From the NCBI RefSeq assembly GCF_009363075.1, contig NZ_CP045293.1:6369006-6433005 (forward strand): DNA of 64,000 nt. Direction: 5' to 3'. Source of the stretch: Paenibacillus guangzhouensis. Its GTDB lineage: Bacteria > Bacillota > Bacilli > Paenibacillales > Paenibacillaceae. Below, one piece after another: positions 2,563 through 18,974 of this stretch. Made by a program: the position numbers and the translations under genes. A model generated the notes under the pieces. It had not been told where the DNA came from, did no database searches, and was given only the letters and a program-made list of their open reading frames with translations. How positions within the stretch are numbered: the stretch's first letter is position 1; the number at the start of each line of letters is the position of its first letter.

Positions 2563-2639
2563 GGCTGTAAATTTCTTTGTGTAAACTCATAAGTTAAAAT
2601 GAATTAAACTAGGGGAAAGGTTGGTATTAAGAGAATGAC

Positions 2640-3420: not shown

Positions 3421-3537
3421 GAGCCCCCAAAGGTCACACGAAAGTCACCCAAAGGTCACCCTTTCGATAGTTTATAGGGTTGATTTGATGAGCCTTAAGC
3501 AGGGAAATCATGTATACTTAACGAATTGTAATAGTAC

Positions 3538-5352
3538 ATGTCGAAACTTTATAAGGAGGCTATCAGAGTGAGCGTGCAATCCTATTCCGGCTGCCTGGTA
3601 AGCACTTTGAAAAAATGTAAGCAATCTTCTAAAGAGGCTGTAGATAATTTGGAGTCTTTCGACTCCTTTAAAAAGTATATGCATATTTCAAGGACTGTCG
3701 AAACAGAGTTAGAAGAGATTATTGTAAAATCAAAAAATGCTGAGCAATCACAGCTTATATTAGTATGTGGCGGTGTTGGGGACGGCAAGTCGCACACACT
3801 TGCGTACTTAAAAAGCAAGTATTCTTTCCTAAGCACGACGGAGTTTTATATACATAATGATGCTACAGAAAGTTTTGATCCGCAGAAGACTTCGATTCAA
3901 ACCCTGGCGGAGTGCTTTAGAGACTTCTCAGATGAAGGATTGAAATCTGGAGCTATTAAGAAAGCAATTCTAGCAATAAATTTAGGAGCATTGAATAATT
4001 TTATTGACTCGGATTATGGAAGTCAATTCAGTCAATTGAAAAACTATGTGAACTCTAAGAAAATCCTTGAGTCCACAATAACCTCAAACAATTATGATCC
4101 TAATAGTCACTTTCAATTTGTCAATTTTAGTGATTATTATATGTTTGAATTAACTGAAACCGGAACAAAATCGGATTATTTATTCGGATTAATTAATAAA
4201 ATTACTGCTCCATTACAAGAAAACCCTTTTTACAAGAGCTATCAAAATAACTGCATTAATAACTGTGTGGTCGCCGAACAATGTCCAATTAAAAAAAATT
4301 ACGAGTTGATTGCGGAATCTAATATTCAGAATAAGGTTATTGATCTTATTGTAAAAGCCGTGATAAGTGAAAAGCTCATTGTCTCGTCAAGAGCATTTCT
4401 GAATTTTATTTACAATATTCTGGTTGCTCCCAATTATGAGAATTTGTCAGATGATTCGATTATGAAAGTAAATATGAATATCCAAATTAGCGAATATATT
4501 GAGCGACTATTGCCATTTTTGGTTTTTGCTCAACCGGATAGCTCAAATATAAACTATGCCTTGTCACATTTGAGCCCGACCAATTCGAGAAATGAACATA
4601 TTGATCAAGTATTAATTGATTTTAAAACTGTTGATGATAAGACCGATTTATTTCATAAATACCTCAATATTGACTCATTACCATACCTTTTTAGTCTAAT
4701 AAAAAAATATCAAAAAGATGAACAGCTAAAGTCACAATTGGAACGGGAAGTCGGTAAGTTGTTTGTTCATTTATCATATTTCCTAAATAAGGAACACTGG
4801 AATGTGTTTCATGATCCTGTTTTTGTTAAGTATGTATCATATCTTTACTGGTCAAATATCGGAAATACAGGAAAGTTAGCAAATCTATATAATATCGAAC
4901 TCAAAGAAGCTATTTATCGTTGGAACGGGAATGGGTTTGGTACTTATATAAGTCTCAATGTTGGGCAACCTCAGAATTCTTATAAAACTCTTCAGAAGCT
5001 TGAGATTCAACCTTTAATAAATAAAGATGTAGCGAGTTGTTCAGAGAATCAGCTGTCAAAGTTTCTATTAAAGATTCCTGTTGCATTTAAAGTGAAAAAC
5101 TCAGTTGGTTCAGCTGCTGTAGAACTAGACTATTCACTATATAAACTTGTTACAAAAATAGGTGAGGGTTATCGGCCAAATAAAAATGATAAACTACAAT
5201 TCATTAACTTCGTAGATTTTATTAATAAACTTAGTGAGTTAGGAAACGGACGTGAAGAAATTATTTTTGAGGAAGTTCACTCGGCAAGTAAAAGTAGATA
5301 TTCCTTGAGTTATGATAATATTTTCGAAAATTATACATTTACGGTGGTATAA
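3538..5352 (+). CDS. dptF: Phosphorothioate-dependent restriction protein DptF/DndF, a P-loop NTPase
   Basis: 604 aa with Walker A LVCGGVGDGKSHTL. First gene of a three-gene set whose sizes (604/463/1728 aa) and order match dptFGH. An alternative GTG start at 3568 sits behind AAGGAGG. Confidence 0.7.
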   Translation: MSKLYKEAIRVSVQSYSGCLVSTLKKCKQSSKEAVDNLESFDSFKKYMHISRTVETELEEIIVKSKNAEQSQLILVCGGVGDGKSHTLAYLKSKYSFLSTTEFYIHNDATESFDPQKTSIQTLAECFRDFSDEGLKSGAIKKAILAINLGALNNFIDSDYGSQFSQLKNYVNSKKILESTITSNNYDPNSHFQFVNFSDYYMFELTETGTKSDYLFGLINKITAPLQENPFYKSYQNNCINNCVVAEQCPIKKNYELIAESNIQNKVIDLIVKAVISEKLIVSSRAFLNFIYNILVAPNYENLSDDSIMKVNMNIQISEYIERLLPFLVFAQPDSSNINYALSHLSPTNSRNEHIDQVLIDFKTVDDKTDLFHKYLNIDSLPYLFSLIKKYQKDEQLKSQLEREVGKLFVHLSYFLNKEHWNVFHDPVFVKYVSYLYWSNIGNTGKLANLYNIELKEAIYRWNGNGFGTYISLNVGQPQNSYKTLQKLEIQPLINKDVASCSENQLSKFLLKIPVAFKVKNSVGSAAVELDYSLYKLVTKIGEGYRPNKNDKLQFINFVDFINKLSELGNGREEIIFEEVHSASKSRYSLSYDNIFENYTFTVV

Positions 5353-5355
5353 CAT

Positions 5356-6747
5356 ATGAGCTATCAACTGGACATTGATAAAATTAAGCAAAATTTTAAC
5401 TTCTACGAGGAAAAAATAAGACATAATCCCAGTAAAGTATCGAGATTTTTACCATATACCTCAAAAAAAAATGACGAAGATAAAGTAAAGGACTTTGCGA
5501 TGGTATTGGGGGAGTTTTTTCGTCTAGTTGAAAAGAAAAGAGCGGACGAAAACATCGTTTTTAGTGAGATTTTAGAAAAAATGCTAGCTAAGGTTACTTT
5601 CGATAAAGAGGGGGATAAAGAGTACTTCATTAACCTAGTTAATTCTATTTTTCAAACGGAAAACAATAAGACGTATATTTTCCATCCACATATTTACTTG
5701 TATCTAACTACTGATACTGAGACGAAGAAGATGGGACGGTTTCTATTTGATGTTCTGATTAATGAATCAAAACAAAAGGATATCGTTCTTCAAATAAATT
5801 TTGATACAACAGATGTTCTTTCAAAATTATTTGTTGAAGTATTACCCCAATTAGAGAGTTACCAAGACAATGAAAAGGCGACATATCATTGTGCAATACC
5901 TAATATTTCAACATTATTCACTAAAGATCTTAAATGGTTATTGGCACATCCAAACTTGTTTATACTTCATGTAGAGAAGCTATTGAAGTATTACTACTTT
6001 TTTTACGTATCCCAATTTTCGTTGTCATGTCAACGTTTTTTGACTGAAGAAGAACTTGAGATACAACCTATATACTTTAACCTGGAATGGGAGAGTACAT
6101 CTAGTAACAGGATAAGTTATGAAAATGGTTGGAAAAAAATTGAGGCCCCAATTTCGGTATTATTCTCACATATCAATTGCCTGGAGTTCTTAAACCACAA
6201 GAAACATTCCGATAGTGTTTATTTTTATAATGACATAGTAAGAAAATTAAAATCTGTAGACGCTTCAGGTCGTATGAAACTGTTAAGTGAATTGGAGAAA
6301 CTAATCAAGGACTATATGGATAAATTACCTGACACCAACTGGGAAGGTTTTAAATACAAGGATACTTATGATGATCCAGTGAAGAGCATGATTAATAAAT
6401 TATTCAGAGCAATAGATTACCAGTTTAATGATAGTACTCGTAAAAAACAATATATAATGTATCGGCAATGGTTTGTATCTTTTTGCCAAAGCAACTTTAT
6501 TAAGGTGAGAGGGCGGCTTGGGAAGACATTGAAGTTAACTCCAGAATACCTGTTATTCATTACTAATTTAATCATTAAAGATGAGCCAAAAATAAGATTG
6601 AAGAAATTGTTTGAAGGATTTAAGGAGAGAGGAATTGAATTTGATCGGGATTCACAGAACCAGATTATTAAGTATTTTGAGGCTATAAATATAATTGAGA
6701 AAAAAAGCGATAGTGGGGATGCAATCTATGTCAAATCCTTTTTATGA
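5356..6747 (+). CDS. dptG: Phosphorothioate-dependent restriction protein DptG/DndG
   Basis: 463-aa ORF starting 4 nt after the dptF stop. Identity rests on size and position between the dptF and dptH candidates. Confidence 0.65.
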   Translation: MSYQLDIDKIKQNFNFYEEKIRHNPSKVSRFLPYTSKKNDEDKVKDFAMVLGEFFRLVEKKRADENIVFSEILEKMLAKVTFDKEGDKEYFINLVNSIFQTENNKTYIFHPHIYLYLTTDTETKKMGRFLFDVLINESKQKDIVLQINFDTTDVLSKLFVEVLPQLESYQDNEKATYHCAIPNISTLFTKDLKWLLAHPNLFILHVEKLLKYYYFFYVSQFSLSCQRFLTEEELEIQPIYFNLEWESTSSNRISYENGWKKIEAPISVLFSHINCLEFLNHKKHSDSVYFYNDIVRKLKSVDASGRMKLLSELEKLIKDYMDKLPDTNWEGFKYKDTYDDPVKSMINKLFRAIDYQFNDSTRKKQYIMYRQWFVSFCQSNFIKVRGRLGKTLKLTPEYLLFITNLIIKDEPKIRLKKLFEGFKERGIEFDRDSQNQIIKYFEAINIIEKKSDSGDAIYVKSFL

Positions 6748-9700
6748 TTATCTTGCAAGGAAGGTGGATGAATATTTCTCCAGTACATTCCTTCTTCCTG
6801 GTGATAAATATCATATTTATTTTGATCGTGATGAGCATGTTTCAGTGTTGCTTACTCATTTAAACGCACTTAGCAACAGCGAAACGTTTCATGTCAAAGA
6901 TGAGAGCGGTCATATAGTTTACGAGACATTTTGTTTAAAATATTATGGTTCAAATTTAGTTGTGGGTTCGACGGTTAATGCAACACCGGACTATTTAACA
7001 AAGCTCCGTAATAGTGTTGGAACTGAAAGTAACGATATGCAGGAAACGTCATTTTTACTTATACATAATTCAAATTTAGATAGTTTGGTTCATGGTACAG
7101 ATTCTTTTTATAAGGAAGGCATGCCTTTTCATATTAAGGTAGTTGAAAAAGATATTAAACAATTGTTAGCCACAACTTCTCTTAACACAACTGAGAAAAG
7201 AATACTTGAATTCATTGTTTCTAATAAAAAAGTAATGCGCAGTCAATATGAGGAAACTACCCTTTTTGATTTTATTGATGTACTTGCGGTGCTAAATCGA
7301 TCTGAAATCTCAAATAGTGAGTATATGTCATTTGGGTTGTTCAAAGATAATGATATGGTGCTTCCTACATTAACTGATAAAGATTTCAAAGAACGACTTA
7401 AACTTAACCATGAGTTGTTTACTAAAGTTGATTCTGTCTACAAAAATGGAAATATTGACACCGAACTTGAAAAGTATTTTGATGATGAGGGAGTAGACTT
7501 ATTATCAAACCCAAACTGGGCAGAGACTGAGTTTAATCCCGTTTATATATCCAATCGTAATAAGCAGAATGATAAAGGACTTGAGTACGTTGAAGGAAAG
7601 AAAAAGACCCAAGATGGGCTGAACTTTTGGGAGAGGCCCGCGGGCGAAAGTAAGTCAAAACAAAGGACTCGAAGTTTTCTCATCTTTAATCCAGAAAAAA
7701 AACAAGAAATTAACCTTGAGTTGAACTTCAATGACAAAGTCTTCAACAAGCATGCCAAGTTGGAGACTAAGGTTATTGGTGTAACCACCGATACATATGG
7801 GTCCAAGTTGAAAGTTAAAATTAAGGTGAATGAAGTAGAAAGTAAATTTTTCAGAATAACCTACAAAACGGAGACCTCAAATAAGTTTGATTTTAGGTTT
7901 GCTGTAGTTGAAGTTAATGAATCATTTCTTGCGGGGATTCAAACTTCTTATACTGTTGTACCTACTAAAGAGCCATATCTCTTAATTAGTTCTGAGGAAA
8001 CCGAACTAATAGTGAACCCCTCTGAGAACGATGTCGAAACAAACATGATAACTCTTGATGGTAGGTCTGTTCCGCAGGTTAAGGTGACTACTGGTCAAAA
8101 AGTAATAATTAAAAAATCGCTAGATAGTGATAATGAAGAAGAAGCAATTCGCTTCAATATTTTGTTTAATGACACCTTAATTCCTTTTGCGGTTGAAGAT
8201 ATCGTTGAGCGCCCTGCGCCAATAACAGCATTTACAGTTTGGAAACAAAAGATGTTAAGACAAGAGCACTTCTATTATAAAATCGAAAACGAGAAAATGA
8301 AGATAATTTATGGAAATCGAGAAACTTTCGCACAGGGGGAATTTAAGAAAAGTTTGGAGCGGGAGTATGAGTTAATTCATTCTGATGGGCTCTATTTCCA
8401 TGAAGGCGTTATAGGGTTACTAAACAAAGAAATTGAGGTTCCCGATAGTATTAGAAGCTCTTATTCGAATCTAATTACTTATTTTAAAACAAAAAAATTG
8501 TTACCCAGTCTGGCATATATGGATGAGGAATATAAAAGCCTGGTCGAGGTCTACATATCCTCGTTCATTGATGAACTAGAGCAGCTAGAAAACGGACAGT
8601 TAACTCAAAAGAGTCGTAATATAGGTCTAGTTGGAACTATCGACCGGACGATAGGAGAAAAGGAATGGTTATTTAGTCCGTTGCATCCTATGAATCTTGT
8701 TTTTCAAATTGTATTAAACAAGTTGATAGCTGGGCAAGAACTTCAAGACGAATTGTTGAAAACGTTAAGGGGAACTTTTTTAATTCCTCATGTTCGATTT
8801 GGAAATGATAAGCTCTATAAGGTTACAGATCAATCAGACTCATACGAGTGGAACACCTATGTAGATAATGATCTACCTAGGTACGAAGGTAATAGGTCAT
8901 TCGTGAATAAATTAGTATATGAAAAGATTGAGGAGTTTATCGAGCACTTTAAGTATTTGTTTGACACTGATGAGCGTTCGCCCTTAAAAGTAAATGTAGT
9001 GAATATGGGGGATTGCCGTGAGATAACGCAAGGACTTTTAGAATTTTACAAGAGACAACTTAAAAAGAAGATAAGCAAAGAGAAGCTAGTACCTATTAAT
9101 ATAAATATTTATTCTGAAACTCCTGAGACAAATGTGTTTGAAGAAATTTCAGAATTATCAAAGGTTGAAGATATCGAGGAACGACTTGATCTAAAACTAT
9201 CTGTAGACGATTACTTAGCAGAAGAAGTAATTAATATTTTTCATGACAAGGTAACTTTTTTTTCGAAAGATGCCGCTAATGATAAGTACGAGTATAGTCA
9301 TGTTACTTTCTATCAAATGAAGAAAATTGAACAGATAGCCGACAGCAAGATGGTGGATATCCCAACGGGCCTATCCTTATTCGGACTGTCTTCAGGAGTA
9401 CCGTCTGCGTTTGTCAACGGAAATTATTTAACTGGGTTCGGCAGCAAATCTTTGCCGGATAGCAATAACTTAATTCATCGTCTCGCTCCGCGAATGAATG
9501 CTTTGTTAAGAGTTGCAAGGAACTTAAATAGCTACCAGGACGACTCGGCGGTAGTTACTGCGATATCTTCCGAAGGGAAACATATCCTTAATAAGATATA
9601 TGATTCAACTCACTGGGTTACATTCGTAGAACCTCGTGTAGACTTGAGTTTTTTTAAAAATGACACAAGAAATAACGATTTATTAGTTATTCACTATAAC

Positions 9701-11881
9701 GACCAATATACAACTTCTAACGCCTTGGATGCTATTACTGTAACTCGGCGATCGAAACAATACCAAGTACTTATTCAGGAATTTTTGGCTTCAAAAGGCG
9801 TACCTATTCAGGAAGATGTAACAATAAATATTATTAATCTTTTCAACGCACTAAATGGTAATTGGTTATTGCGTTTGCTTGCCCAGAATAATCATTTTCC
9901 AAAAGAAAAAATTAGTATTCTCTCTGCTGCTAAATTGGCACTAGCATTCCTATGGACTTCTGACATCATATGGATTCCGATTTCTATGGAGGAAGTGCTT
10001 AGGATCTCTGGTGGAACTGGACTTAAGCAAGCAGAGGGGTTATTCTCGGCGAAGAATTTACGTCAACATGGCTCGTATAGTGATGACTTACTTTTCATTG
10101 GAATTGAAACGTGTGATGGTAGCAACATTAAAGTCCATTTATGTCCAGTTGAAGTGAAAATCGGAGTTAATAGTAATGTTCAGGCTAAGGCCATTTCGCA
10201 AGTAAAGGAAACTCATCGACTTCTTTATGAATTTTTGACAGGGGATGCCCCATCGGCCATGATCTATCGCAACTTTTTCATCCAGTTGGCGTTGGCCAAC
10301 CTGGAGAAATTAACTATTTATGATGTTTGGCCGGAACAAAATTTTAGAAATAAAGTTGATTATGTAATTAAGGAACGGCTTTTGAATGATGAGTATATCC
10401 TTTCTAATGAATTTAAAGAAGTCTTAGGAGAAGGTCTTGTTATTTCCTTCAAGCGTGATCTCATCTTTGCAGAAGCAAAAAAAATTGATGATGTAATGTA
10501 CATCAGCTACCCGGAGAAGACTGGGTACAATTTCGTTACTACAAGCGTTGAAAATTTGAAAGCTGCACTGCACAATGGCCAGTCCAGCATCGATAAAAAT
10601 TTGCTTTTATCAAATTGTCATAATAAATCGGATGCGACTACTGTTATTTCTTACGTACACGATAGTAACGAGAGTATAACACCTATTTCTGAGGCTAATG
10701 TACATTCTCCTGTAGCTGAAGCTTTACCTTCTGATGAAGATAAGCCGTTAGAAATTTTATTTGGAACGAATGTAGAAAATGGTGATAATGTCACCTGGTT
10801 TCCAACTTCTACAAATAAAGTCCTTCATACGAATACAGGTATAATTGGAACAATGGGGACGGGGAAGACACAATTCACGAAATCACTTGTAGCTCAACTT
10901 AAAAAGAACTCTGGTCAAAATCTATATAAAACACCAATTAAGGTTTTGATTTTTGATTACAAAGGAGACTATATAAAAGATGATTTTGTGAAGTCAACAG
11001 GAGCTAAAATTTACGATTTATTTCATTTGCCATATAATCCTTTGTCTTTGTTTGTTACCCAACCGATAAAACCTTTATTACCGGTTCATACCAGCAGTAC
11101 TTTAACTGATACTATTTGCACTGCATTTAACCTTGGTCCCGTTCAGACAATAACCTTAAAAGATTTAATTATGGATGCGTATGCAAATAAAGGGATTTTA
11201 AAAACTGACTCGTCCACTTGGAATAAACCCGCTCCAACATTCAATGATTTGTTTGAGTTGTTTTCACAGAAAGATGGATTAAAGATAGACAGTTTGTACG
11301 CAGCACTAAAGGAATTATACGATACAGAAGTGTTCGAGCCTGATTCAACAAAAACAATTCCATTATTTGATTTAATTGAGGGAATAACTGTAATTAATTT
11401 GTCTGGCTACAACGATAGTATTCAGAATTTGGTTGTCGCAATTACTTTGGACAACTTCTACAATCAGATGCAGATGTCCGGGCATAGTAGGATACAAGGC
11501 AACATAAGAGAAATTACAAGAATGATATTGGTAGATGAAGCTGACAACTTCTTAAGTAAGGATTTTAAGGCAATTAAGAAAATCCTGAAGGAAGGCAGAG
11601 AATTTGGAGTAGGTACAATTCTTTCGACCCAATTTTTAAGTCATTTCTCAACGAACGATAACGATTATGCAAACTATATCTTAACTTGGGTCCTCCATAA
11701 TGTTTCGGAATTGAGTAGTAAAGAGATAAGAATGTTATTTAATACTCAGTCCAAGACCGAAGAAGAAAATATTATGAGTCAGATTAAAAAGTTAGAAAAG
11801 CATCATAGTGTGGTTAAGGGGATTGGCAAGGAACCGATACTGATGAGAGATAAAGCTTTTTGGGAGTTATTTAATTATTAA
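6728..11881 (+). CDS. dptH: Phosphorothioate-dependent restriction protein DptH/DndH, a large protein with a C-terminal FtsK/HerA-like ATPase
   Basis: Roughly 1720 aa. Near the C-terminus, Walker A IGTMGTGKTQFTKS and Walker B ILVDEADNF. Overlaps the dptG 3' end; start uncertain between 6695, 6719 and 6728. Confidence 0.8.
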   Translation: MSNPFYDYLARKVDEYFSSTFLLPGDKYHIYFDRDEHVSVLLTHLNALSNSETFHVKDESGHIVYETFCLKYYGSNLVVGSTVNATPDYLTKLRNSVGTESNDMQETSFLLIHNSNLDSLVHGTDSFYKEGMPFHIKVVEKDIKQLLATTSLNTTEKRILEFIVSNKKVMRSQYEETTLFDFIDVLAVLNRSEISNSEYMSFGLFKDNDMVLPTLTDKDFKERLKLNHELFTKVDSVYKNGNIDTELEKYFDDEGVDLLSNPNWAETEFNPVYISNRNKQNDKGLEYVEGKKKTQDGLNFWERPAGESKSKQRTRSFLIFNPEKKQEINLELNFNDKVFNKHAKLETKVIGVTTDTYGSKLKVKIKVNEVESKFFRITYKTETSNKFDFRFAVVEVNESFLAGIQTSYTVVPTKEPYLLISSEETELIVNPSENDVETNMITLDGRSVPQVKVTTGQKVIIKKSLDSDNEEEAIRFNILFNDTLIPFAVEDIVERPAPITAFTVWKQKMLRQEHFYYKIENEKMKIIYGNRETFAQGEFKKSLEREYELIHSDGLYFHEGVIGLLNKEIEVPDSIRSSYSNLITYFKTKKLLPSLAYMDEEYKSLVEVYISSFIDELEQLENGQLTQKSRNIGLVGTIDRTIGEKEWLFSPLHPMNLVFQIVLNKLIAGQELQDELLKTLRGTFLIPHVRFGNDKLYKVTDQSDSYEWNTYVDNDLPRYEGNRSFVNKLVYEKIEEFIEHFKYLFDTDERSPLKVNVVNMGDCREITQGLLEFYKRQLKKKISKEKLVPININIYSETPETNVFEEISELSKVEDIEERLDLKLSVDDYLAEEVINIFHDKVTFFSKDAANDKYEYSHVTFYQMKKIEQIADSKMVDIPTGLSLFGLSSGVPSAFVNGNYLTGFGSKSLPDSNNLIHRLAPRMNALLRVARNLNSYQDDSAVVTAISSEGKHILNKIYDSTHWVTFVEPRVDLSFFKNDTRNNDLLVIHYNDQYTTSNALDAITVTRRSKQYQVLIQEFLASKGVPIQEDVTINIINLFNALNGNWLLRLLAQNNHFPKEKISILSAAKLALAFLWTSDIIWIPISMEEVLRISGGTGLKQAEGLFSAKNLRQHGSYSDDLLFIGIETCDGSNIKVHLCPVEVKIGVNSNVQAKAISQVKETHRLLYEFLTGDAPSAMIYRNFFIQLALANLEKLTIYDVWPEQNFRNKVDYVIKERLLNDEYILSNEFKEVLGEGLVISFKRDLIFAEAKKIDDVMYISYPEKTGYNFVTTSVENLKAALHNGQSSIDKNLLLSNCHNKSDATTVISYVHDSNESITPISEANVHSPVAEALPSDEDKPLEILFGTNVENGDNVTWFPTSTNKVLHTNTGIIGTMGTGKTQFTKSLVAQLKKNSGQNLYKTPIKVLIFDYKGDYIKDDFVKSTGAKIYDLFHLPYNPLSLFVTQPIKPLLPVHTSSTLTDTICTAFNLGPVQTITLKDLIMDAYANKGILKTDSSTWNKPAPTFNDLFELFSQKDGLKIDSLYAALKELYDTEVFEPDSTKTIPLFDLIEGITVINLSGYNDSIQNLVVAITLDNFYNQMQMSGHSRIQGNIREITRMILVDEADNFLSKDFKAIKKILKEGREFGVGTILSTQFLSHFSTNDNDYANYILTWVLHNVSELSSKEIRMLFNTQSKTEEENIMSQIKKLEKHHSVVKGIGKEPILMRDKAFWELFNY

Positions 11882-11889
11882 TTTATTCA

Positions 11890-11920
11890 GGATGCCCTTT
11901 TTGGGCATCTTTTCTTTATT
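11890..11920 (+). terminator. Rho-independent terminator after dptH
   Basis: Hairpin gatgccc-ttttt-gggcatc followed by a T-rich tract. Confidence 0.6.
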
Positions 11921-12002
11921 GACCGCTAATGTTTAATTATGTACAATAGGATATAGAGACTTCCAAAATAGAATTACAAACTTCCAAATTCGGAGGGAAA
12001 AA

Positions 12003-13094
12003 ATGCAACAGCATCTTCCAATGTTCTATACATTTCCATCCATTCGTGGTATACAGGCAGGGCGGGAATATTACATAACCATGTGCCCGTTAAAACTAAT
12101 ACCAAGAATCTTCCTTTTTGACGAAGAGGATATTGATCCCACCGTAAGATCTCAGAGGGTTTTAAATAAAGCACGAGTACCTGAGATTGCTGAATATCTT
12201 ATTAATAATTGTAAGGATTACGTTTTTTCGGCCATTACCGCTTCAATTGATGGACTGGTAGATTTTGTACCTTTATCAGATGATCCTGTCAACTACAATA
12301 TTGGTATTATTAAAGTTCCTATGACATCAAAAATTGTAATTAATGACGGGCAGCATAGACGTGCAGCAATTGAGGCAGCCTTAAAAAAGAAGCCAGAACT
12401 TGGGGATGAAACGATCTCTGTTGTTTTCTTTCTAGACGAGGGCTTGAGAAGATCACAGCAAATGTTCGCAGATCTTAATCGCTATGCTATTCGACCCTCT
12501 GGCTCCCTAAATATCTTATACGATTACAGAGATCCAGTAGCTGAAATCGCTAGACAACTATCGTATGAACTAGATTTATTTGATGGACTGACTGAAATGG
12601 AAAAGACAACCATATCGAATAGATCAACAAAGCTATTTACGTTAAGTGGGTTGTATCGTGCTACCAATGAACTGATTAATAATAAGATTGACAAACCTTA
12701 TGAAGAGCTAAAAGAAATATCCTTCAAATATTGGGCAGTAGTCGGTAAACATATTAAGGAATGGAATAGTGTTAAGGAAGGCGTTGTAAAGGCTTCTGAA
12801 TTAAGAAAAGACTATATCAACGCTCATGCTATTACATTAGTAGCCTTGGGTAAGGTTGGTTATTGTTTATTAGATGAATTTCCTGATACCTGGGAAAAGG
12901 AACTGGAAAAGTTACAATTAGTTGAATGGTACCGTGGAAATAAGTATTGGGAAGGTCGCGTTACTGTTGGTGGGAAAATTTCCTTCTCGAGAAATAATCT
13001 CATTTTATTAACTAGTGCACTCAAAAAGGTACTAGGGATTCCGCTATCTACAGAAGAGCAAGAGGCGGAAAGATCTTTACAGTCAAGTAATTAG
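12003..13094 (+). CDS. dndB: DNA sulfur modification protein DndB (DGQHR domain)
   Basis: 363 aa with the diagnostic INDGQHRRAAIEAALKK motif. RBS GGAGGG precedes the ATG. Confidence 0.85.
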   Translation: MQQHLPMFYTFPSIRGIQAGREYYITMCPLKLIPRIFLFDEEDIDPTVRSQRVLNKARVPEIAEYLINNCKDYVFSAITASIDGLVDFVPLSDDPVNYNIGIIKVPMTSKIVINDGQHRRAAIEAALKKKPELGDETISVVFFLDEGLRRSQQMFADLNRYAIRPSGSLNILYDYRDPVAEIARQLSYELDLFDGLTEMEKTTISNRSTKLFTLSGLYRATNELINNKIDKPYEELKEISFKYWAVVGKHIKEWNSVKEGVVKASELRKDYINAHAITLVALGKVGYCLLDEFPDTWEKELEKLQLVEWYRGNKYWEGRVTVGGKISFSRNNLILLTSALKKVLGIPLSTEEQEAERSLQSSN

Positions 13095-13114
13095 TGTTTG
13101 ACGGAGGAGCTATA

Positions 13115-14614
13115 ATGAGCACAGCATTTAAAATAAATAAAGAATACCTACAGGAAATAAATGAACGAATTCAAGATTTGTATTTATCAGACCATATTCC
13201 TTGGATTGTGGGTTACAGTGGGGGCAAAGATTCCACGGCAACGTTGCAACTGGTTTGGAATGCCATAAAAACTTTACCAGAGGAAAAAAGAAATCACAAA
13301 GCTATACACGTCATAAGTACAGATACGCTTGTAGAACAACCAATTGTCGCGGCGTGGGTAAACAACTCTTTGAAAAAAATGAGAGAAACCGCTGTAGCAA
13401 TGGGTATGCCCGTTACTCCACATAGATTAACTCCAGATGTATCAAATTCTTTTTGGGTTAATTTAATAGGTCGGGGATATCCTGCGCCGCGGCCGACCTT
13501 TAGATGGTGTACAAGTCGTCTTAAGATTGATCCATCTAATAAATTTACAACGGACCTTGTTAAAGATTTTGGTGAAACAATTTTGGTTCTAGGAACGAGA
13601 AAAGCGGAAAGTACAAGACGGGCAGGAACCATGAATAAATACGAGAAGCATAGGATCAGAGAGTGGTTAAGTCCTAATGGCAGCTTGCAAAATTCGTGGG
13701 TATTTTCCCCAATTGAGGATTGGACGAGTGATGATGTGTGGTTGTACTTGATGCAGCATACAAATCCTTGGGGAATCTCCAACAAAGATTTGATGGCTAT
13801 GTATCGTGAGGCTACAAACGATAATGAGTGTCCATTAGTGGTAGATACTTCAACACCGAGCTGTGGGAATAGCAGGTTCGGTTGCTGGGTATGCACGTTG
13901 GTATCTTCGGATAAGTCGATGGAAGCCATGATTCAGAATGATGATGAGAAGGCTTGGATGGAGCCGCTTTTGAAGTTCCGTAATGAAGAAATTGGTATGC
14001 TAAATGAGAACGGGAGAATAGATGATCATGATAAGAGGGACTTCCGAAGAAAAGGGGGAGCGATTACTTTAAAAAGGAGCGGTACTGATGTAACTCCAGG
14101 TCCTTATCTTAAAAGTCATCGTGAACATTTACTTCGCCGGCTACTTGAAGTTCAAGAGGAAGTTCGTGAATTAATGCCGGAGGACATGGAAGGGCTAGAA
14201 CTTATCGCACTAGAGGAGATAAAAGAAATTCAAAGGATTTGGGTTCAGGATAAGGCGGAATTTGATGATGCTGTCCCGAAAATCTATCATGAAGTTACAG
14301 GAGCAATTTGGCCATTTAATGATAAATATAGCTCGTTTGGTCGAGAAGAGTGGAGTATTCTCGAGGAGATAACTGAAGGCAATCATGTCACTATGGATTT
14401 GTTCTCTTCACTGCTATATATGGAGGAGCAACATACCACTCTGAGGGGAAGAAAAGCTGTCCTCAGTGAGATCGAAAAACATATCAAAAGATGTTTTTAT
14501 GAGGATGCTCAAGATGCACTTGCGTTTAAGCAGAACCAAGTTGCACTTAGGGATAACGCTAATCCGGATGAGTTAGCCAGCCAACTTGAAATGGAGTCAG
14601 AAGATGATTATTAA
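13115..14614 (+). CDS. dndC: DNA phosphorothioation protein DndC (PAPS-reductase-like PP-loop ATP pyrophosphatase)
   Basis: PP-loop IVGYSGGKDSTATL. About 500 aa. The ATG at 13115 follows GGAGG; the ORF track begins at GTG 13094. Confidence 0.9.
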   Translation: MSTAFKINKEYLQEINERIQDLYLSDHIPWIVGYSGGKDSTATLQLVWNAIKTLPEEKRNHKAIHVISTDTLVEQPIVAAWVNNSLKKMRETAVAMGMPVTPHRLTPDVSNSFWVNLIGRGYPAPRPTFRWCTSRLKIDPSNKFTTDLVKDFGETILVLGTRKAESTRRAGTMNKYEKHRIREWLSPNGSLQNSWVFSPIEDWTSDDVWLYLMQHTNPWGISNKDLMAMYREATNDNECPLVVDTSTPSCGNSRFGCWVCTLVSSDKSMEAMIQNDDEKAWMEPLLKFRNEEIGMLNENGRIDDHDKRDFRRKGGAITLKRSGTDVTPGPYLKSHREHLLRRLLEVQEEVRELMPEDMEGLELIALEEIKEIQRIWVQDKAEFDDAVPKIYHEVTGAIWPFNDKYSSFGREEWSILEEITEGNHVTMDLFSSLLYMEEQHTTLRGRKAVLSEIEKHIKRCFYEDAQDALAFKQNQVALRDNANPDELASQLEMESEDDY

Positions 14615-16598
14615 ATCAATTAGTCTTTGCAACTTTGGTGTATACGCAGGGGTACAACAACTAAATCTAGCTCATGATGGGAAAGGGAAAGGCCAGGTCG
14701 TAACACTGGTTGGTGGACTGAATGGGCGAGGAAAGACCAGTATCCTTGAGGCTCTCCTGCTGGCCTTTTATGGAAATCGCTCTCCCAAAGTAAGGGAGAG
14801 TGGACGCAGTTATTCAAATTACTTGGCCGAATTAATTCATGGTCGTGGAGTTGAAGAACTGGAAAGTTGGGTGATACTTGAGCTAGAAGTTCCTCTGGAC
14901 AGCTCGGTAAGCAATATCAAACTAAAGCGTTCTTGGGGAAAAAAGAATGTACGGGTGACGGACTTCCTACAGGTATGGCGCGATGAACGAGAAGATCCAT
15001 ACCTAGCGGAGAATTGGGATAGCTACGTTGAAGAATTAATACCGTCCGCTATAGCAGAGCTATTCTTTTTTGATGGTGAACGGATAAGTACTCTGGCCGA
15101 ATCTGATGAAACAGTGGAATCATTGCGAAAAGCCATTCAAACGCTTCTAGGTATTGAGACTATTGATAGGCTTACAAAGGATTTGGAGCTTTTAATAAAA
15201 AGAAATAGAGCTGTTTCAGTAAATACTGAATTAAAAGATGAGTTACAGGAAATTAACGAGTACCTTCAGTCTATAGAGCTGAAATATAGTCATGTAAACC
15301 AGGAAAGAAGTAGTTTGAATTCGAAAATGCAATATATGACTCAGCAATTGGAGCTACTGAAAAAAGCATATGGTGAAGCTGGGGGAGGATACTTTGATAA
15401 TCAAGGTAAACTTCTTAAACGTCAAGGGGAGCTCCATATTGAATTAGATGAGCTAAAATTAAGTGTAGGCTCTGTTCTAGCGGGTGCTTTTCCTTTAATT
15501 CTTGTTGAAGACCAGGTTAGGAAGGTTAAACAAACTGCTAAACGCGATTTGGTAAACAATCAAGCCAAGGCATCTTTATCTTTCATTAAGAATATCTCTT
15601 CAGATATTATGTCGAGCATCAATATTCTAGAGATTGACAGTATCGAGAAAGATAAAGTACAACAGCTGATCTTATCGAAGATAGCCGGAGTGGAACAATC
15701 AGCAAAAGAGGATCCTCTATTTCCGGTCGGGCTTACGATGTCGAATCAACTGGATAATATATTGGGCCTTTTAAGCTTAGAAAAAACAAATGCCCGGGAA
15801 TTGATTAGTAGATATGAAGAGATTGATCACGAACTTTATCAAATAGAAAAGAATATGCCATCCGATCCGGATGTCGATGCTCTCAAGGATTTGCTAGAAA
15901 AGCAGAAAGAAACAGAGATGACCATAGGTGAGTACTCCAGGGCCATCTCTCAATATGACGAAGAGTTGAGATTGTTAAAAATTGAGGAGCAAAGGGCCAA
16001 GGAAAAGATCGTGAAGATGAGTACTTTGAAGGCCGAAGCAGACGAGACAGAGCGCATGATCAAATATGCCCTTCAGACTCAGCTGAAAATGAAAGTTTTT
16101 CGGGATCGATTAACAGAGCAGAAAGTAAATAAATTAGCGGAGTTTATTTATGAGGCGTTCAAATTATTAACCCATAAGAGCAGCTTGGTCTCGCAGGTAA
16201 CTGTAGACGCAGAGAATTTCAAAATAAAGCTTTATGATATAAGTGGTGCAGAAATTTCTAAGTTTAAACTGTCTAGCGGTGAGAGGCAAATGTTGGCTCT
16301 TGCGATTCTATGGGGGCTAGCAAAAGCATCTGGTAAAACATTGCCTGTTGTCATAGATACACCAATGGGGCGGCTGGATTCACTCCATCGGATTAACTTC
16401 GTAGGGAAGTACCTTCCTAATGCAAGCCATCAAGTTGTTGTGCTTTCCACGGATACTGAAATTGAAGGAAAGTACCTAAAGATGCTTTCGCCATATGTCG
16501 GCAAGAAGTATTTATTGATATACGATGAAACAAACCGGGCTACCGAGATCACCGAAGGATACTTGCTACCTGAAAATGAGATGGAGACACTTGTATGA
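14604..16598 (+). CDS. dndD: DNA phosphorothioation protein DndD (SMC-like ABC ATPase)
   Basis: N-terminal ISLCNFGVY...LVGGLNGRGKTSILEAL Walker A, long coiled-coil middle region, and C-terminal ABC signature-like LSSGERQMLALAIL with Walker B VVIDTPMGRLD. The ATG at 14604 follows GGAG. Confidence 0.85.
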   Translation: MIIKSISLCNFGVYAGVQQLNLAHDGKGKGQVVTLVGGLNGRGKTSILEALLLAFYGNRSPKVRESGRSYSNYLAELIHGRGVEELESWVILELEVPLDSSVSNIKLKRSWGKKNVRVTDFLQVWRDEREDPYLAENWDSYVEELIPSAIAELFFFDGERISTLAESDETVESLRKAIQTLLGIETIDRLTKDLELLIKRNRAVSVNTELKDELQEINEYLQSIELKYSHVNQERSSLNSKMQYMTQQLELLKKAYGEAGGGYFDNQGKLLKRQGELHIELDELKLSVGSVLAGAFPLILVEDQVRKVKQTAKRDLVNNQAKASLSFIKNISSDIMSSINILEIDSIEKDKVQQLILSKIAGVEQSAKEDPLFPVGLTMSNQLDNILGLLSLEKTNARELISRYEEIDHELYQIEKNMPSDPDVDALKDLLEKQKETEMTIGEYSRAISQYDEELRLLKIEEQRAKEKIVKMSTLKAEADETERMIKYALQTQLKMKVFRDRLTEQKVNKLAEFIYEAFKLLTHKSSLVSQVTVDAENFKIKLYDISGAEISKFKLSSGERQMLALAILWGLAKASGKTLPVVIDTPMGRLDSLHRINFVGKYLPNASHQVVVLSTDTEIEGKYLKMLSPYVGKKYLLIYDETNRATEITEGYLLPENEMETLV

Positions 16599-16981
16599 TT
16601 GTGAAACAAATTCGGCTTTCGAACAAAGCAAAAGAGCAGTTAATTCGACTAAAGGCGAAAACAGGTATCCAACAATGGAATATCTTATGCCGTTGGGCGC
16701 TCTGTCTATCAATAAAAGAACCAAACCCACCGATGGACATTGATTACCCAGCGGATAGCAACGTCGAAATGACTTGGCAGGTTTTTGGTGGAGAACATCA
16801 AGATATTTATGAGGCTCTAATTATTCAACGTTGTTTGGATGATGGTTTGGGAACTGATCCGAATGTGCTTGCAAAACAGTTTAGGTTACACTTACACAGA
16901 GGGATCGGACGACTCGCTGCACACGGTTCTAGGCTTAAAAAATCTACGGATCTATTAAAGGTAGGTTTAGGAAAATTCTAG
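16595..16981 (+). CDS. dndE: DNA phosphorothioation protein DndE
   Basis: 128-aa ORF whose ATG overlaps the dndD stop (ATGA). Size and position are typical of DndE. Confidence 0.7.
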   Translation: MIVKQIRLSNKAKEQLIRLKAKTGIQQWNILCRWALCLSIKEPNPPMDIDYPADSNVEMTWQVFGGEHQDIYEALIIQRCLDDGLGTDPNVLAKQFRLHLHRGIGRLAAHGSRLKKSTDLLKVGLGKF

Positions 16982-16993
16982 GAAAGAAGAGAT

Positions 16994-18121
16994 TTGATGA
17001 TGCCACTTTACCTTGACTTTAATGCAACAAGCCCTGTTCATGATGAAGTGTTAGAAGTGATGGTTGAAGCTTACAAGAATAATTTCGGAAACCCCGCCAG
17101 TAGGACGCATCATCACGGGCATCAAGCAAAACAACTAGTGGATAATTCACGCAAAAATATCGCTGCGGTTCTTGGGGTGGTCCCCAATGATATTATTTTT
17201 ACTAGTGGCGCTACTGAGAGCAATAATCTGTCCATTCTTGGGCTTGAGGAATTCGGTGTAAAACAAAATAAAAAGCACATTATATCTACAGTTATAGAGC
17301 ACAGTTCAATTTTGGAACCACTAGAGCATCTATCCAAAAAGGGCTTTAAGATTGACCTTGTTCCAGTGGATTCATCAGGAAGGGTTTCAGCTGAGGATAT
17401 TATAAACCGTGTTACAGACGATACCTTACTAGTTACTATTATGCATGCTAATAATGAAACTGGGATTATCCAACCCGTGAAAGAAATTGGCGATGCCCTG
17501 GTTGACCGTGACGTATTTTTTCATATTGATGCAGCTCAGACCTTTGGAAAGCTTGTTGATGAATTGCAAGAAGTAAAATACGATCTTTTAAGTATAACAG
17601 CTCATAAGATATATGGACCCCAGGGAATTGGTGCGCTTGTTTTTCGGAATAAAAAATATAAGCGTCCACCAATTACTCCATTGATGTATGGTGGGAAACA
17701 AGAAAAAGGACTAAGGCCGGGTACCTTGCCTGCTCCGTTAATTGCAGGGTTTGGTAAAGCAGCAGAGTTGATATTATCTAATTATTTAAATTGGGCCAAG
17801 GCTGAATTGATTATTAGACAAAGTATTATAGAACAGCTTAAAGAAGTAGAATATACTATAAACGGTGACATTTCCTTATGCTTACCGAATTGCATTAATA
17901 TCAGCTTCCCTGGAGTAGACTCGGAGGCGTTAATGTTATGTGTTAGACAAAAATTATCGTTATCAAATGGATCAGCATGCACCTCATCTGAATATAAACC
18001 AAGCCATGTTTTATCCTCAATGGGAGCACTAGCTGAAAACAGTGTAAGGATATCTTGGGGACCTTACTTAGAAAATGTTGATTTATCAGAAATGATACTT
18101 TTTATAAAAAAAATTATTTAG
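16994..18121 (+). CDS. dndA: Cysteine desulfurase of the NifS/IscS family, serving as DndA
   Basis: 375 aa with class V aminotransferase motifs (FTSGATESNNL and SITAHKIYGPQGIGAL, the PLP-lysine region). Directly downstream of dndE. Confidence 0.85.
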   Translation: MMMPLYLDFNATSPVHDEVLEVMVEAYKNNFGNPASRTHHHGHQAKQLVDNSRKNIAAVLGVVPNDIIFTSGATESNNLSILGLEEFGVKQNKKHIISTVIEHSSILEPLEHLSKKGFKIDLVPVDSSGRVSAEDIINRVTDDTLLVTIMHANNETGIIQPVKEIGDALVDRDVFFHIDAAQTFGKLVDELQEVKYDLLSITAHKIYGPQGIGALVFRNKKYKRPPITPLMYGGKQEKGLRPGTLPAPLIAGFGKAAELILSNYLNWAKAELIIRQSIIEQLKEVEYTINGDISLCLPNCINISFPGVDSEALMLCVRQKLSLSNGSACTSSEYKPSHVLSSMGALAENSVRISWGPYLENVDLSEMILFIKKII

Positions 18122-18124: not shown

Positions 18125-18160
18125 AAAAAGAAGCTGTGACTTACATAACAGCTTCTTTTA
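18125..18160. terminator. Bidirectional Rho-independent terminator shared by dndA (+) and the convergent Toprim gene (-)
   Basis: Perfect inverted repeat aaaagaagctgt ... acagcttctttt. Confidence 0.65.
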
Positions 18161-18974
18161 CTAATGTTGAGAATAACTTTTCAAAATAACAAATAAGTTC
18201 AATAATCTTCGGATCTTGTTGAATTTTTTGATCAGAAATATAATCAGTGTCACTTATTATTACCTTGTTAGTTTTTCCTGGCTTTTTTAATTGTCCAGCA
18301 ATCCCTATGCTCATCTTTTGAGTATCGGACGAATGTTTTTTAGGTATGTATGAACTGTTTTTTTGTAAAAACGTCTCTATATCTGTGAATAGTGGCTCAT
18401 GATCTTTAATCATAAGGGGAAGTACAACATCTTCAAGTTTCCCCATCCCATCTCCTTTTTCAAAAATGTAACAACCCAAGAATAACTCTTTATTATTTTT
18501 CTCCTCATTACAGATAATATCTAAATTAGATATTTCTTTAATTAATGGGAGGGTTTTGCTATACTCTTCTTTAAAAATATTTACTACAGATTCAATTCCT
18601 TTGTCGTCTGCATCATTAGTAAAAACAAAGGAGATATTTGTGATTTCAGTATCAGTTGCTGGTACTTCTAGAATATCAAGGTACTTGCCTATTAAGTCCC
18701 GTACTCTATCGTGCTTAGTATTTCCTCCAACACTGTATAATAACACAATTATTTTATCCTTATAGAGTATATCCATAGGCAGTAGCGGGTAGTAATTTTG
18801 TAAATTTAATTGGTTTAAATCATGTTTTTCTATTGCGTTCTTGAAAATTGCATTTAGTGGATAAGGTGCTTTGCCTATTTTTTCTCCATAATTTCGAAAA
18901 TTCATAGTTCGTAAAACCCTGTATATAAAAGCGACGTCGTGGGGACCTTCACATAGAATTAATACTACTTTCAT
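18141..18974 (-). CDS. Toprim-domain protein, OLD/RloB/AbiLii/DUF4276-like; predicted nuclease partner of the upstream ATPase
   Basis: 277 aa. N-terminal MKVVLILCEGPHDVAFI fits the Toprim hhhhEG..D glutamate motif. FVFTNDADDKG supplies a DxD motif. Start overlaps the ATPase stop by 4 nt. Confidence 0.6.
   Translation of the reverse strand: MKVVLILCEGPHDVAFIYRVLRTMNFRNYGEKIGKAPYPLNAIFKNAIEKHDLNQLNLQNYYPLLPMDILYKDKIIVLLYSVGGNTKHDRVRDLIGKYLDILEVPATDTEITNISFVFTNDADDKGIESVVNIFKEEYSKTLPLIKEISNLDIICNEEKNNKELFLGCYIFEKGDGMGKLEDVVLPLMIKDHEPLFTDIETFLQKNSSYIPKKHSSDTQKMSIGIAGQLKKPGKTNKVIISDTDYISDQKIQQDPKIIELICYFEKLFSTLVKEAVM

Follow-up and report, generated by a model that had tools for sequence, protein, structure and literature searches.

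A predicted Dnd phosphorothioate restriction-modification cluster in Paenibacillus guangzhouensis and a candidate operator upstream of dndB

Do the eight neighbouring genes at positions 3538-18121 of the analysed stretch of the Paenibacillus guangzhouensis chromosome (64 kb, hereafter the window) form an intact phosphorothioate restriction-modification system, and how did they arrive there? A sequence-only reading had proposed a complete, horizontally acquired system. Judged from its genes and signals, the region is predicted, with a probability of about 0.9, to be an intact, horizontally acquired Dnd system, organised in two co-directional transcription units, dptFGH and dndBCDE-dndA. A literature search on P. 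guangzhouensis found no experimental data on the organism.

The analysis of the cluster shows what its genes are and that they are intact, along with their catalytic motifs, the operon signals and the mobility of the cassette. Eight consecutive open reading frames (ORFs) lie on the + strand at exactly 3538-18121, in the proposed order dptF, dptG, dptH, dndB, dndC, dndD, dndE and a DndA-type desulfurase. According to NCBIfam, PADLOC and motif reading, all eight proteins match their profiles end to end, and frameshifts and internal stops are absent. The PADLOC models for DndF, DndG, DndH, DndB, DndC, DndD, DndE and DndA are likewise matched over their whole length. The profile search that the earlier reading had suggested for DndB/C/D/E and DptF/G/H was run, and all seven proteins exceeded their NCBIfam equivalog cut-offs; the eighth protein matches DndA best, at a score just below the cut-off. 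Each gene assignment made from the raw sequence was thus reproduced by curated profiles, and matches to solved structures and RefSeq names agree. All the named motifs (P-loop, DGQHR, SGGKDS, SMC-like ATPase, FtsK-like ATPase) were found on direct reading. The proposed gene extents hold as ORFs, with small corrections to five starts: RefSeq and the ribosome-binding sites place those of dptF, dptH, dndC, dndD and dndA later than in the maximal ORFs.

The restriction genes precede the modification genes on the same strand, as the sequence-only reading had it. The first, dptF (dndF; 3568-5352, +; maximal ORF from 3538), starts with a GTG at 3568 that has AAGGAGG 8 nt ahead. Its 594-aa product, a derived P-loop kinase-like component of the restriction complex, matches TIGR03238 at 268 bits (NCBIfam cut-off 50) and PADLOC DndF at 566 bits over 1-548 of 548. 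Direct reading places a Walker A/P-loop, GGVGDGKS, at residue 78 and an ND motif at 107, and the product is identical to RefSeq WP_193726670, named DptF. The DNA-binding subunit is encoded by dptG (dndG; 5356-6747, +; 463 aa), with 188 bits to TIGR03236 (cut-off 20), 449 bits to PADLOC DndG and 99 bits (E = 2.9e-27) to the DptG structure 7EXX; it is identical to WP_152396586, named DptG. The large multidomain subunit encoded by dptH (dndH; 6728-11881, +; maximal ORF from 6695) had been put at about 1720 aa with a C-terminal FtsK-like ATPase. It has 1717 aa, matches TIGR03237 at 719 bits (cut-off 620.65) and PADLOC DndH at 1940 bits over 1-1715 of 1715, and is identical to WP_193726671, named DptH. 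A PD-(D/E)xK nuclease motif (SDD...EVK, about 1130-1155) is followed by Walker A (GTMGTGKT, 1385) and Walker B (MILVDE, 1610), all in maximal-ORF numbering. Pfam places matches to DUF87 (HerA central domain) and TrwB_AAD_bind over residues 1365-1586, in the part of the protein that holds the Walker motifs, and the C-terminal HerA/FtsK-type domain matches its DptH counterpart 7ES4 at 422 bits.

In the modification unit, dndB (12003-13094, +; 363 aa) encodes a DGQHR protein of the ParB superfamily, predicted to regulate the operon negatively. Its product scores 472 bits with TIGR03233 (cut-off 328) and E = 1.4e-128 with Pfam DndB, shows on direct reading DGQHR at 115 and, in its N-terminal region, Cys28, and is 100% identical to the RefSeq DndB of P. 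guangzhouensis. The dndC product (13115-14614, +; 499 aa; maximal ORF from 13094) is a PP-loop ATP pyrophosphatase/sulfurtransferase with a cysteine cluster: TIGR03183 gives 640 bits (cut-off 290), and SGGKDS at 42 and cysteines at 139, 246, 257, 264 and 267, including CWVC, were read in maximal-ORF numbering. The SMC-like ATPase encoded by dndD (14604-16598, +; 664 aa; maximal ORF from 14586) matches TIGR03185 at 507 bits (cut-off 246), with Walker A GLNGRGKT at 44 and the signature LSSGE at 562 on direct reading. Lastly, dndE (16595-16981, +; 128 aa) encodes the small DNA-binding protein of the modification complex (TIGR03184, 123 bits, cut-off 72; Pfam DndE, E = 6e-42). These three products are identical to WP_152396589, WP_152396590 and WP_152396591, named DndC, DndD and DndE.

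The base composition of the region had been described as far below that of the second half of the window, and this is the case, with 34-40% GC in the cluster vs 47%. The GC content is 0.343 for dptFGH, 0.398 for dndB-A, 0.353 for positions 1-21500 and 0.472 for positions 22000-64000. Abutting the cassette, and outside the system, lies a truncated tyrosine recombinase (integrase) gene (3220-3420, - strand), of which only the C-terminal catalytic end is left. Its translation, FRHTSATLLINKGVHAKLISERLGHSNISTTMNIYGH, matches Pfam PF00589 at 37.9 bits, covering only profile positions 132-169 of 172. At the nucleotide level, similarity to P. ehimensis and Paenibacillus sp. LHD-117, two further species of the genus, covers the eight-gene cassette alone (window 3537-18085), and the neighbours differ; the P. 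ehimensis cassette is flanked by RadC/DUF932 and GIY-YIG/transposase genes. Gene order, strand, the intergenic terminator and the ACTTCCA pair described below are shared, at 58-94% protein identity. In LHD-117, an additional gene for a 77-aa Xre-type HTH protein, on the opposite strand, separates dptH from dndB. Horizontal transfer is supported by the recurrence of the cassette between unrelated flanks and by the truncated integrase gene directly upstream of it, in line with the low GC content and the earlier proposal.

Adjacent modules do not always act together. A comparative study argues that DndFGH is commonly decoupled in function from the modification module (PMC10853773). DptFGH could then be a stand-alone counter-invader with its own sensing of invader DNA or nucleotides, and the marks made by DndBCDE-A would serve something else, for instance redox protection, epigenetic effects or a different nuclease. 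Homologues of dptF/G/H were found in only 3 of 80 diverse dndB loci (fetched flanks of up to 10 kb per side). Moreover, the dpt half has the lower GC content, and its proteins diverge faster between the Paenibacillus species (58-81% identity, vs 70-94% for the dnd half), as if the two halves were under different pressures. Against this, the eight genes move as a single block with unrelated flanks in three species of this lineage. Such block transfer is expected if the restriction genes are toxic whenever the modification genes are missing, a toxicity demonstrated in Salmonella (PMC11662687). Experiments also show that phosphorothioate represses the ATPase of DndFGH, a 2:2:1 complex that couples nicking to translocation (PMC11662687). 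Decoupling is thus considered unlikely in P. guangzhouensis, and a linked restriction-modification system is preferred.

The last gene (16997-18121, +) lies downstream of dndE and encodes a PLP-dependent cysteine desulfurase of 374 aa, with the PLP lysine (HK at 204) and the catalytic Cys329 (GSACTS) evident on direct reading. A general-purpose IscS/NifS enzyme could sit there by chance, with sulfur supplied by housekeeping IscS as in Salmonella and E. coli. The protein reaches 452 bits with DndA TIGR03235, 28 short of the cut-off of 480, bears the generic RefSeq name "cysteine desulfurase family protein" and scores slightly higher in PADLOC as SspA (420.8) than as DndA (406.7). Nevertheless, DndA beats the next NCBIfam match, IscS (357 bits), by 95 bits. 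S. lividans DndA (3VAX, 317 bits) is the best match among solved structures, ahead of E. coli IscS (284) and SspA (220). Furthermore, the gene begins 16 nt past dndE on the same strand with no intervening terminator, its GC content of 0.379 matches the low-GC island, and a homologue directly follows the dnd operon in 13 of 83 related loci, in Bacillota, Chloroflexota, Planctomycetota and archaea among others. A chance neighbour is therefore very improbable, and the assignment of a desulfurase in the DndA position stands.

A hairpin between dptH and dndB had been read as a possible boundary between transcription units. It is an intrinsic terminator (11889-11921, +), found by terminator scan, with a 9-bp G+C-rich hairpin at 11889-11911 followed by a T-tract. 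Its folding energy is -14.8 kcal/mol (z = -4.7), and none of 200 shuffles folds as well. An equivalent hairpin and T-run occupy the same gap in both relatives, loci L001 (P. ehimensis) and L003. A promoter-like site of the sigma-70 type for dndBCDE-dndA follows at 11919-11947 (+; TTGACC-17-TACAAT, 10 of 12 consensus matches), and P. ehimensis has the same hexamers with an 18-nt spacer. Since a terminator and then a promoter-like site lie in this gap, dptFGH and dndBCDE-dndA are supported as separate units. Past dndA, a hairpin at 18126-18159 (12-bp stem, -15.5 kcal/mol, z = -4.1), common to the convergent ends of dndA and a downstream minus-strand gene, is likely a bidirectional terminator. 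A silent or decaying remnant of an old island that no longer modifies or restricts DNA is hardly credible: the cluster adjoins the truncated integrase gene and non-coding debris of about 1 kb, but none of the eight ORFs is shortened relative to its profile, every catalytic motif is kept, ribosome-binding sites, promoter-like site and terminators are in place, and the orthologous cassettes preserve both the gene order and the open reading frames.

Downstream of the -10 box and ahead of the dndB ribosome-binding site lie two direct ACTTCCA boxes, a candidate operator (11959-11986, +; boxes at 11959-11965 and 11980-11986, 21 bp apart). A close ACTTCC pair occurs nowhere else in the 64-kb window. 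L001 and L003 have the pair with the same spacing despite differing surrounding sequence. In the sequences preceding dndB at 82 loci, ACTTCC shows the strongest enrichment of all 6-mers (54 observed vs 4.1 expected), and consecutive forward boxes are 21-22 nt apart in 19 of 21 cases. Its presence tracks DndB groupings in a quick neighbour-joining tree. These patterns suggest that the box is probably a clade-specific operator. DndB is an autorepressor in Salmonella (PMC4507180), and the P. guangzhouensis DndB is predicted to bind both boxes, probably holding down operon transcription; doubt has been voiced that DndB is only a transcription factor (PMC10853773). DndE, with its ribbon-helix-helix domains, could bind the boxes instead. 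In several loci the final box lies 3-6 nt ahead of the ribosome-binding site, with which it could pair weakly in the mRNA.

Among known systems, DndBCDE-DndFGH (DptBCDE-DptFGH) of Salmonella enterica Cerro 87 and E. coli B7A shares seven components at equivalog level, including the DptH and DptG matches to the E. coli/Salmonella structures 7ES4 and 7EXX. It also has separate restriction and modification units, with dndB opening the modification operon and short repeated boxes ahead of it (PMC4507180, PMC11662687). In contrast, P. guangzhouensis is a Gram-positive host with dptFGH upstream and co-directional. It encodes its own DndA-type desulfurase where Cerro 87 and B7A depend on housekeeping IscS, and its candidate operator is a direct repeat instead of the TACGN10CGTA palindrome. 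No dndI-like gene was detected, with DUF262/DUF1524 matches absent among the cluster and flanking proteins scanned. The dndABCDE system of S. lividans resembles the cluster in its dedicated DndA, its dndBCDE order and its genomic island (PMC6435447). In S. lividans-type loci, though, dndA is divergent and upstream of dndB, while here it follows dndE, as is normal for this clade, and dptFGH is attached. The divergent layout is the majority among 80 sampled loci, carries other boxes upstream (ACAAAC/GTATGTTTGT type), and is accompanied by dptFGH only in L010, within the fetched flanks. SspABCD-SspE/SspFGH and DndCDEA-PbeABCD also combine a cysteine desulfurase with a PAPS-reductase-like sulfurtransferase, and the DndD-like ATPase model PbeC fits the P. 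guangzhouensis DndD equally well in PADLOC. The Ssp class was rejected, as DndB and DndE, which define Dnd, are present and SspB, SspC and SspE had no matches in the cluster or its neighbours; nor did PbeA, PbeB and PbeD.

We infer every biochemical activity of the cluster from family membership and from what has been published on the Salmonella, E. coli and Streptomyces systems, and likewise infer the box-binding protein. DndA would take sulfur from L-cysteine and carry it as a persulfide on Cys329. DndC, with its PP-loop and Fe-S cluster, would then replace a non-bridging phosphate oxygen with sulfur together with DndD and DndE, within a short consensus sequence of the host DNA. DndB would repress the operon, probably via the two boxes. 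A complex of DptF, DptG and DptH, the domain architecture of which has been dissected for DndFGH (PMC10853773), would translocate on DNA powered by the HerA/FtsK-type ATPase of DptH and nick it with the PD-(D/E)xK nuclease. Phosphorothioate marks would suppress this ATPase, so that host DNA is spared and unmarked phage or plasmid DNA damaged.

The P. guangzhouensis Dnd cluster is an ordinary copy, a known system and a known instance, because seven of its eight genes already carry the names DptF/G/H and DndB/C/D/E in RefSeq. The ACTTCCA box pair upstream of dndB may be the one new element of the locus.

The region 3538-18121 consists of eight ORFs in succession, all on the + strand, which the sequence-only reading had recognised as a full phosphorothioate restriction-modification system. 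NCBIfam equivalog cut-offs served as the standard of identity, with Pfam and PADLOC models and PDB matches considered alongside. The gene assignments of that reading stood up to the profile check, with seven of the eight proteins above their cut-offs and the eighth having DndA as its best, sub-threshold match. DptF reached 268 bits (TIGR03238, cut-off 50), DptG 188 bits (TIGR03236, cut-off 20), and DptH 719 bits (TIGR03237, cut-off 620.65). Among the modification proteins, DndB scored 472 bits (TIGR03233, cut-off 328) and 258 bits with the DGQHR model TIGR03187, DndC 640 bits (TIGR03183, cut-off 290), DndD 507 bits with 1-649 of the 650 profile positions covered (TIGR03185, cut-off 246), and DndE 123 bits (TIGR03184, cut-off 72). 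Pfam matches in the cassette comprised DndB, DndE (E = 6e-42), PAPS_reduct (in DndC), AAA_23/SMC_N and Aminotran_5, and the C-terminus of DptH matched DUF87, the HerA central domain, and TrwB. The PADLOC models for DndF/G/H/B/C/D/E/A were covered essentially end to end, e.g., 1-1715 of 1715 positions for DndH at 1940 bits. Since E-values reach 1e-216 and lower, chance matches are of no concern. Solved structures agree with the curated profiles: the DptH C-terminal domain (PDB 7ES4) matched DptH with 422 bits, and DptG (7EXX) matched DptG with 99 bits. As judged from its sequence, the cassette is thus an ordinary, intact Dnd phosphorothioate restriction-modification system on a defence island of P. 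guangzhouensis.

All motifs named in the earlier reading were found in the translated proteins. DptF contains GGVGDGKS, DndB DGQHR at residue 115, DndC the PP-loop SGGKDS at 42, and DndD the Walker A motif GLNGRGKT and the signature LSSGE. The DptH C-terminus carries GTMGTGKT at 1385 (Walker A) and MILVDE at 1610 (Walker B); positions in DptH and DndC follow the numbering of the maximal ORFs. The placement of the DptH ATPase in the HerA/FtsK clade agrees with published domain definitions (PMC10853773). Further motifs were also present. DptF has the ND motif that belongs to the DndF P-loop kinase (PMC10853773), and DptH has a PD-(D/E)xK-type SDD...EVK at about 1130-1155, where domain definitions place the DndH nuclease (PMC10853773). 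DndC carries a cysteine cluster (Cys139, 246, 257, 264 and 267) of putative Fe-S ligands, and the desulfurase has its PLP lysine and catalytic Cys329.

The DndB sequence matches a RefSeq entry, 'DNA sulfur modification protein DndB [Paenibacillus guangzhouensis]', at 100% identity, and an exact look-up of its cassette neighbours returned the names DptF, DptG, DptH, DndC, DndD and DndE. Both the system type and the present instance were therefore already known. A search of the literature by species name found no work on phosphorothioate in P. guangzhouensis. RefSeq records and ribosome-binding sites put five starts on the + strand downstream of those of the maximal ORFs, namely dptF at 3568 (a GTG after AAGGAGG), dptH at 6728, dndC at 13115, dndD at 14604, and dndA at 16997. 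With these starts, dptF, dptG and dptH are all present, full length and contiguous at 3568-11881. The stop of dptH lies 121 nt from the start of dndB, within the 30 ORFs of dndBCDE in which surveys ask for DndFGH (PMC8569181).

Two related systems were considered, as PbeC and SspA were the nominal top PADLOC models for two of the proteins. DndD scored about level with PbeC models (573 bits) and DndD models (570 bits), but a scan of 14 proteins from the cluster and its flanks gave no match for PbeA, PbeB or PbeD, and a Pbe system (DndCDEA-PbeABCD) was rejected because its partner genes are absent. An Ssp system (SspABCD-SspE/FGH) was rejected for the same reason: the desulfurase gave the sole strong Ssp match in the cassette (SspA, 420.8 bits), DndC matched the SspD model weakly (34.7 bits against 605 for the DndC model), and SspB, SspC and SspE had no match among the cluster and flanking proteins scanned.

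The last gene of the Dnd cassette (16997-18121) is the only one with a generic RefSeq name ('cysteine desulfurase family protein'), as fits a DndA score below threshold. Its top NCBIfam match was DndA (TIGR03235, 452 bits), 28 under the cut-off of 480, followed by IscS with 357. The top PDB match was DndA of S. lividans (3VAX, 317 bits), with E. coli IscS (284) and SspA (220) scoring lower. A desulfurase homologue directly follows the dnd operon in 13 of 83 related loci among those listed, and the desulfurases found at that place in other dndBCDE-A loci share 37-77% identity with that of the window. Its position and its catalytic residues suit a DndA; the profile score stays short of the threshold. 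The practical point is that the putative downstream-type DndA lies just below the NCBIfam DndA threshold and is annotated generically; its counterparts in other dndBCDE-A loci may be likewise under-annotated.

The terminator proposed earlier between dptH and dndB was confirmed by folding. The gap contains a G+C-rich 9-bp hairpin with a T-tract (11889-11921, -14.8 kcal/mol, z = -4.7), followed by a promoter-like site, TTGACC-17-TACAAT (11919-11947). An equivalent hairpin occurs in the cassettes of both P. ehimensis and Paenibacillus sp. LHD-117, and the P. ehimensis cassette has identical promoter hexamers upstream of dndB. The two transcription units suggested from the raw sequence are therefore well supported. 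This organisation fits that of Salmonella, where dndBCDE and dndFGH(I) form separate operons (PMC11662687). The first gene of the second operon is dndB, which encodes a DGQHR-domain protein of the ParB superfamily; within the operon, the start of dndE overlaps the stop of dndD by 4 nt. A second hairpin (18126-18159, -15.5 kcal/mol, z = -4.1) probably terminates the dnd operon and also the downstream gene that converges on it. In the LHD-117 locus (L003), an additional 77-aa Xre-type HTH gene (9591-9824, - strand) lies between dptH and dndB. Neither the window nor P. ehimensis has this gene, which may encode an additional regulator.

The layout of the cassette was compared with 80 diverse dndB loci among the matches listed (L numbers below), one genome per species and taken from outside the closest Paenibacillus genomes. 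The loci were searched by tblastn with the eight cassette proteins, with fetched flanks of up to 10 kb per side. In the majority of the 80 listed loci, dndA is divergent and upstream of dndBCDE, as in S. lividans, whereas dndA of the window follows dndE. A minority shares the window's arrangement, with the desulfurase gene after the operon (L005-L008, L018, L035, L055, L069, L073 and L076), including four of the five listed loci nearest to the window DndB: L005-L008, from Symbiobacteriaceae, Cohnella, Anaerolineae and Dissulfurispiraceae. Homologues of dptF/G/H were found within the fetched flanks of only three of the 80 listed loci. Their scarcity agrees with published counts, by which numerous dnd clusters stand alone (PMC6435447, PMC8569181, PMC11662687). 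Together, the survey and these counts make the co-directional dptFGH-dndBCDE-dndA block one known-type arrangement among several and not a new architecture.

A close comparison was made separately with the loci of P. ehimensis (L001) and LHD-117. Both share the eight genes and their order with the window, at 58-94% protein identity, and their nucleotide similarity to the window is confined to 3537-18085, with different flanking genes. The eight genes hence move as a cassette. Across the Paenibacillus species, dptFGH diverges faster (58-81% identity for DptF/G/H) than DndB/C/D/E (70-94%). The restriction half (3568-11881) is also poorer in GC, at 0.343, than the modification half (12003-18121), at 0.398. 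The low GC content of the island relative to the second half of the window, noted in the sequence-only reading, is borne out by values of 0.353 for 1-21500 and 0.472 for 22000-64000. As GC is already low at position 1, the low-GC region starts beyond the left end of the window; on the right it ends, approximately and by composition, at 21.0-21.6 kb. A tyrosine recombinase remnant of the C-terminal 60-odd codons adjoins the cassette upstream (3220-3420, - strand). It was matched by Pfam PF00589 only at profile positions 132-169 of 172 and is thus a truncated integrase. No tRNA or tmRNA was found in a scan of the whole window, and a repeat search gave no convincing direct repeats on either side of the low-GC region. 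The sequence around the truncated gene, about 1 kb at 2560-3537, is mostly non-coding. Within it, positions 3425-3460 form a tandem repeat resembling AAAGGTCAC, and a Cys-rich ORF of 57 aa at 2747-2920 matched no family.

Other defence-type genes flank the cassette. On its left, an AbiC/AbiP-like abortive-infection protein (5-973, + strand) precedes a 425-aa ORF (1285-2562, + strand) with no Pfam, NCBIfam or PADLOC match, both at about 31% GC, which suggests that the low-GC defence island reaches past the left end of the window. On its right, a PDC-M38 candidate two-gene defence system (18141-21007, - strand) converges on dndA. Its products are an AAA_21/AbiLi-like ATPase of 678 aa, whose N-terminus gave a weak ParB-like match below cut-off (24.5 bits), and a 277-aa DUF3226 protein. 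The pair is outside the conserved cassette, both relatives having other genes at that place. Further along lies a Hen1-Pnkp RNA-repair pair (21653-25507, + strand), a defence-type neighbour. The 3' end of Pnkp is directly repeated over 300 nt (25191-25490 and 26762-27061, 94%), the copy encoding a 103-aa Pnkp C-terminal fragment, which is followed by an apparently N-terminally truncated RNA 2'-phosphotransferase (27386-27784, + strand). A TatD-family DNase (27805-28590, + strand) stands beside two adjacent WYL/WCX regulators (28685-30812, - strand), one of them HTH-WYL-WCX (29490-30812), and these resemble the regulators often found beside defence genes. Farther on, a T-box leader (42240-42502, + strand; Rfam RF00230, 99.1 bits against a gathering score of 93) lies upstream of an ORF at 42616-43701 and is consistent with a Bacillota host.

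By family membership, DndA would mobilise cysteine sulfur, and DndC (PP-loop, Fe-S), DndD (SMC-like ATPase) and DndE (DNA binding) would install Rp phosphorothioates at a short consensus, with DndB expected to repress the dnd operon (PMC6435447, PMC8569181, PMC4507180). Phosphorothioate represses the DndFGH ATPase, and host DNA is thereby spared (PMC11662687); the ATPase of DptFGH would be held down in the same way. The main dissenting view in print is that DndFGH commonly works uncoupled from modification and may detect invaders on its own. Nevertheless, all eight genes are tightly co-inherited in the Paenibacillus lineage, which argues for coupling of restriction and modification there. The main finding is mostly confirmatory, as curated models already cover the system type and the instance. 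It adds to the examples of Dnd travelling as a compact block of eight genes within a defence island, here in a soil bacterium that is Gram-positive.

In the dndB leader, downstream of the -10 box and ahead of the ribosome-binding site, two ACTTCCA boxes form a direct repeat with a 21-bp period (11959-11965 and 11980-11986). No other close ACTTCC pair exists anywhere in the 64-kb window, and the pair recurs with identical spacing in both Paenibacillus relatives amid differing surrounding sequence. When the 186 nt in front of dndB were compared with whole loci in an unbiased, strand-specific 6-mer test, ACTTCC was the top-ranked enriched 6-mer, with 54 copies observed against 4.1 expected, in 33 of the 82 loci listed. 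Successive forward copies were 21 nt (n = 11), 22 nt (n = 8) or 42-43 nt (n = 2) apart. The boxes occur in the window, L001, L003, L005-L010, L014, L015, L018, L020, L025, L026, L032, L033, L035, L038, L041, L043-L045, L048, L054, L058, L062, L064, L069, L073 and L076. When the 82 DndB proteins were placed on a quick neighbour-joining tree, all loci but those of a single large S. lividans-like clade had at least one forward ACTTCC box. Within that clade of 49 loci, 48 lacked the box on either strand and one had a single reverse copy. Nearly all box-less loci (e.g., L012, L017, L022, L024 and L029) have the divergent-dndA, S. lividans-like layout. Between dndA and dndB, the clade has repeated boxes of ACAAAC(A/G)T / GTATGTTTGT / TTGACAAAC instead, suggestive of another operator half-site. 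The ACTTCC half-site itself is arranged as inverted pairs, TGGAAGTCAA...TTGACTTCCA, in a mainly planctomycete sub-clade.

The simplest reading is that ACTTCCA is the operator half-site of the window's DndB branch, which spans Bacillota, Chloroflexota, Planctomycetota, methanogenic archaea and others. DndB of Salmonella binds TACGN10CGTA palindromes of its own promoter (PMC4507180). We give a probability of about one half to the broader proposal that phased ACTTCCA boxes are the operator of one large coherent DndB branch and that other branches use different half-sites, ACAAAC/GTATGTTTGT in the S. lividans-like clade and TACGN10CGTA in Salmonella. DndE, instead of DndB, could bind the boxes. 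Alternatively, the last box (CUUCC) could pair in the RNA with the Shine-Dalgarno GGAGG, which could hold for the last box of some loci. Pairing does not account for a 21-22 nt spacing of two or three boxes, for boxes that lie tens of nucleotides away from the extrapolated start, for the inverted arrangements or for the archaeal occurrence, and is therefore ranked below a DNA operator.

The ACTTCC boxes may be new as a candidate dndB operator; a full-text search for DndB and ACTTCC, in literature of incomplete coverage, gave only an unrelated PCR primer. They are a modest by-product of the analysis, but offer a cheap, testable handle on the control of modification levels and bear on the current dispute on whether DndB is a transcription factor. 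If the operator reading is true, comparative genomics would independently back the disputed role of DndB as a sequence-specific autorepressor. The specificity of DndB would then have been re-tuned several times, some lineages arranging the half-sites as direct repeats at a distance of two helical turns and others as inverted repeats.
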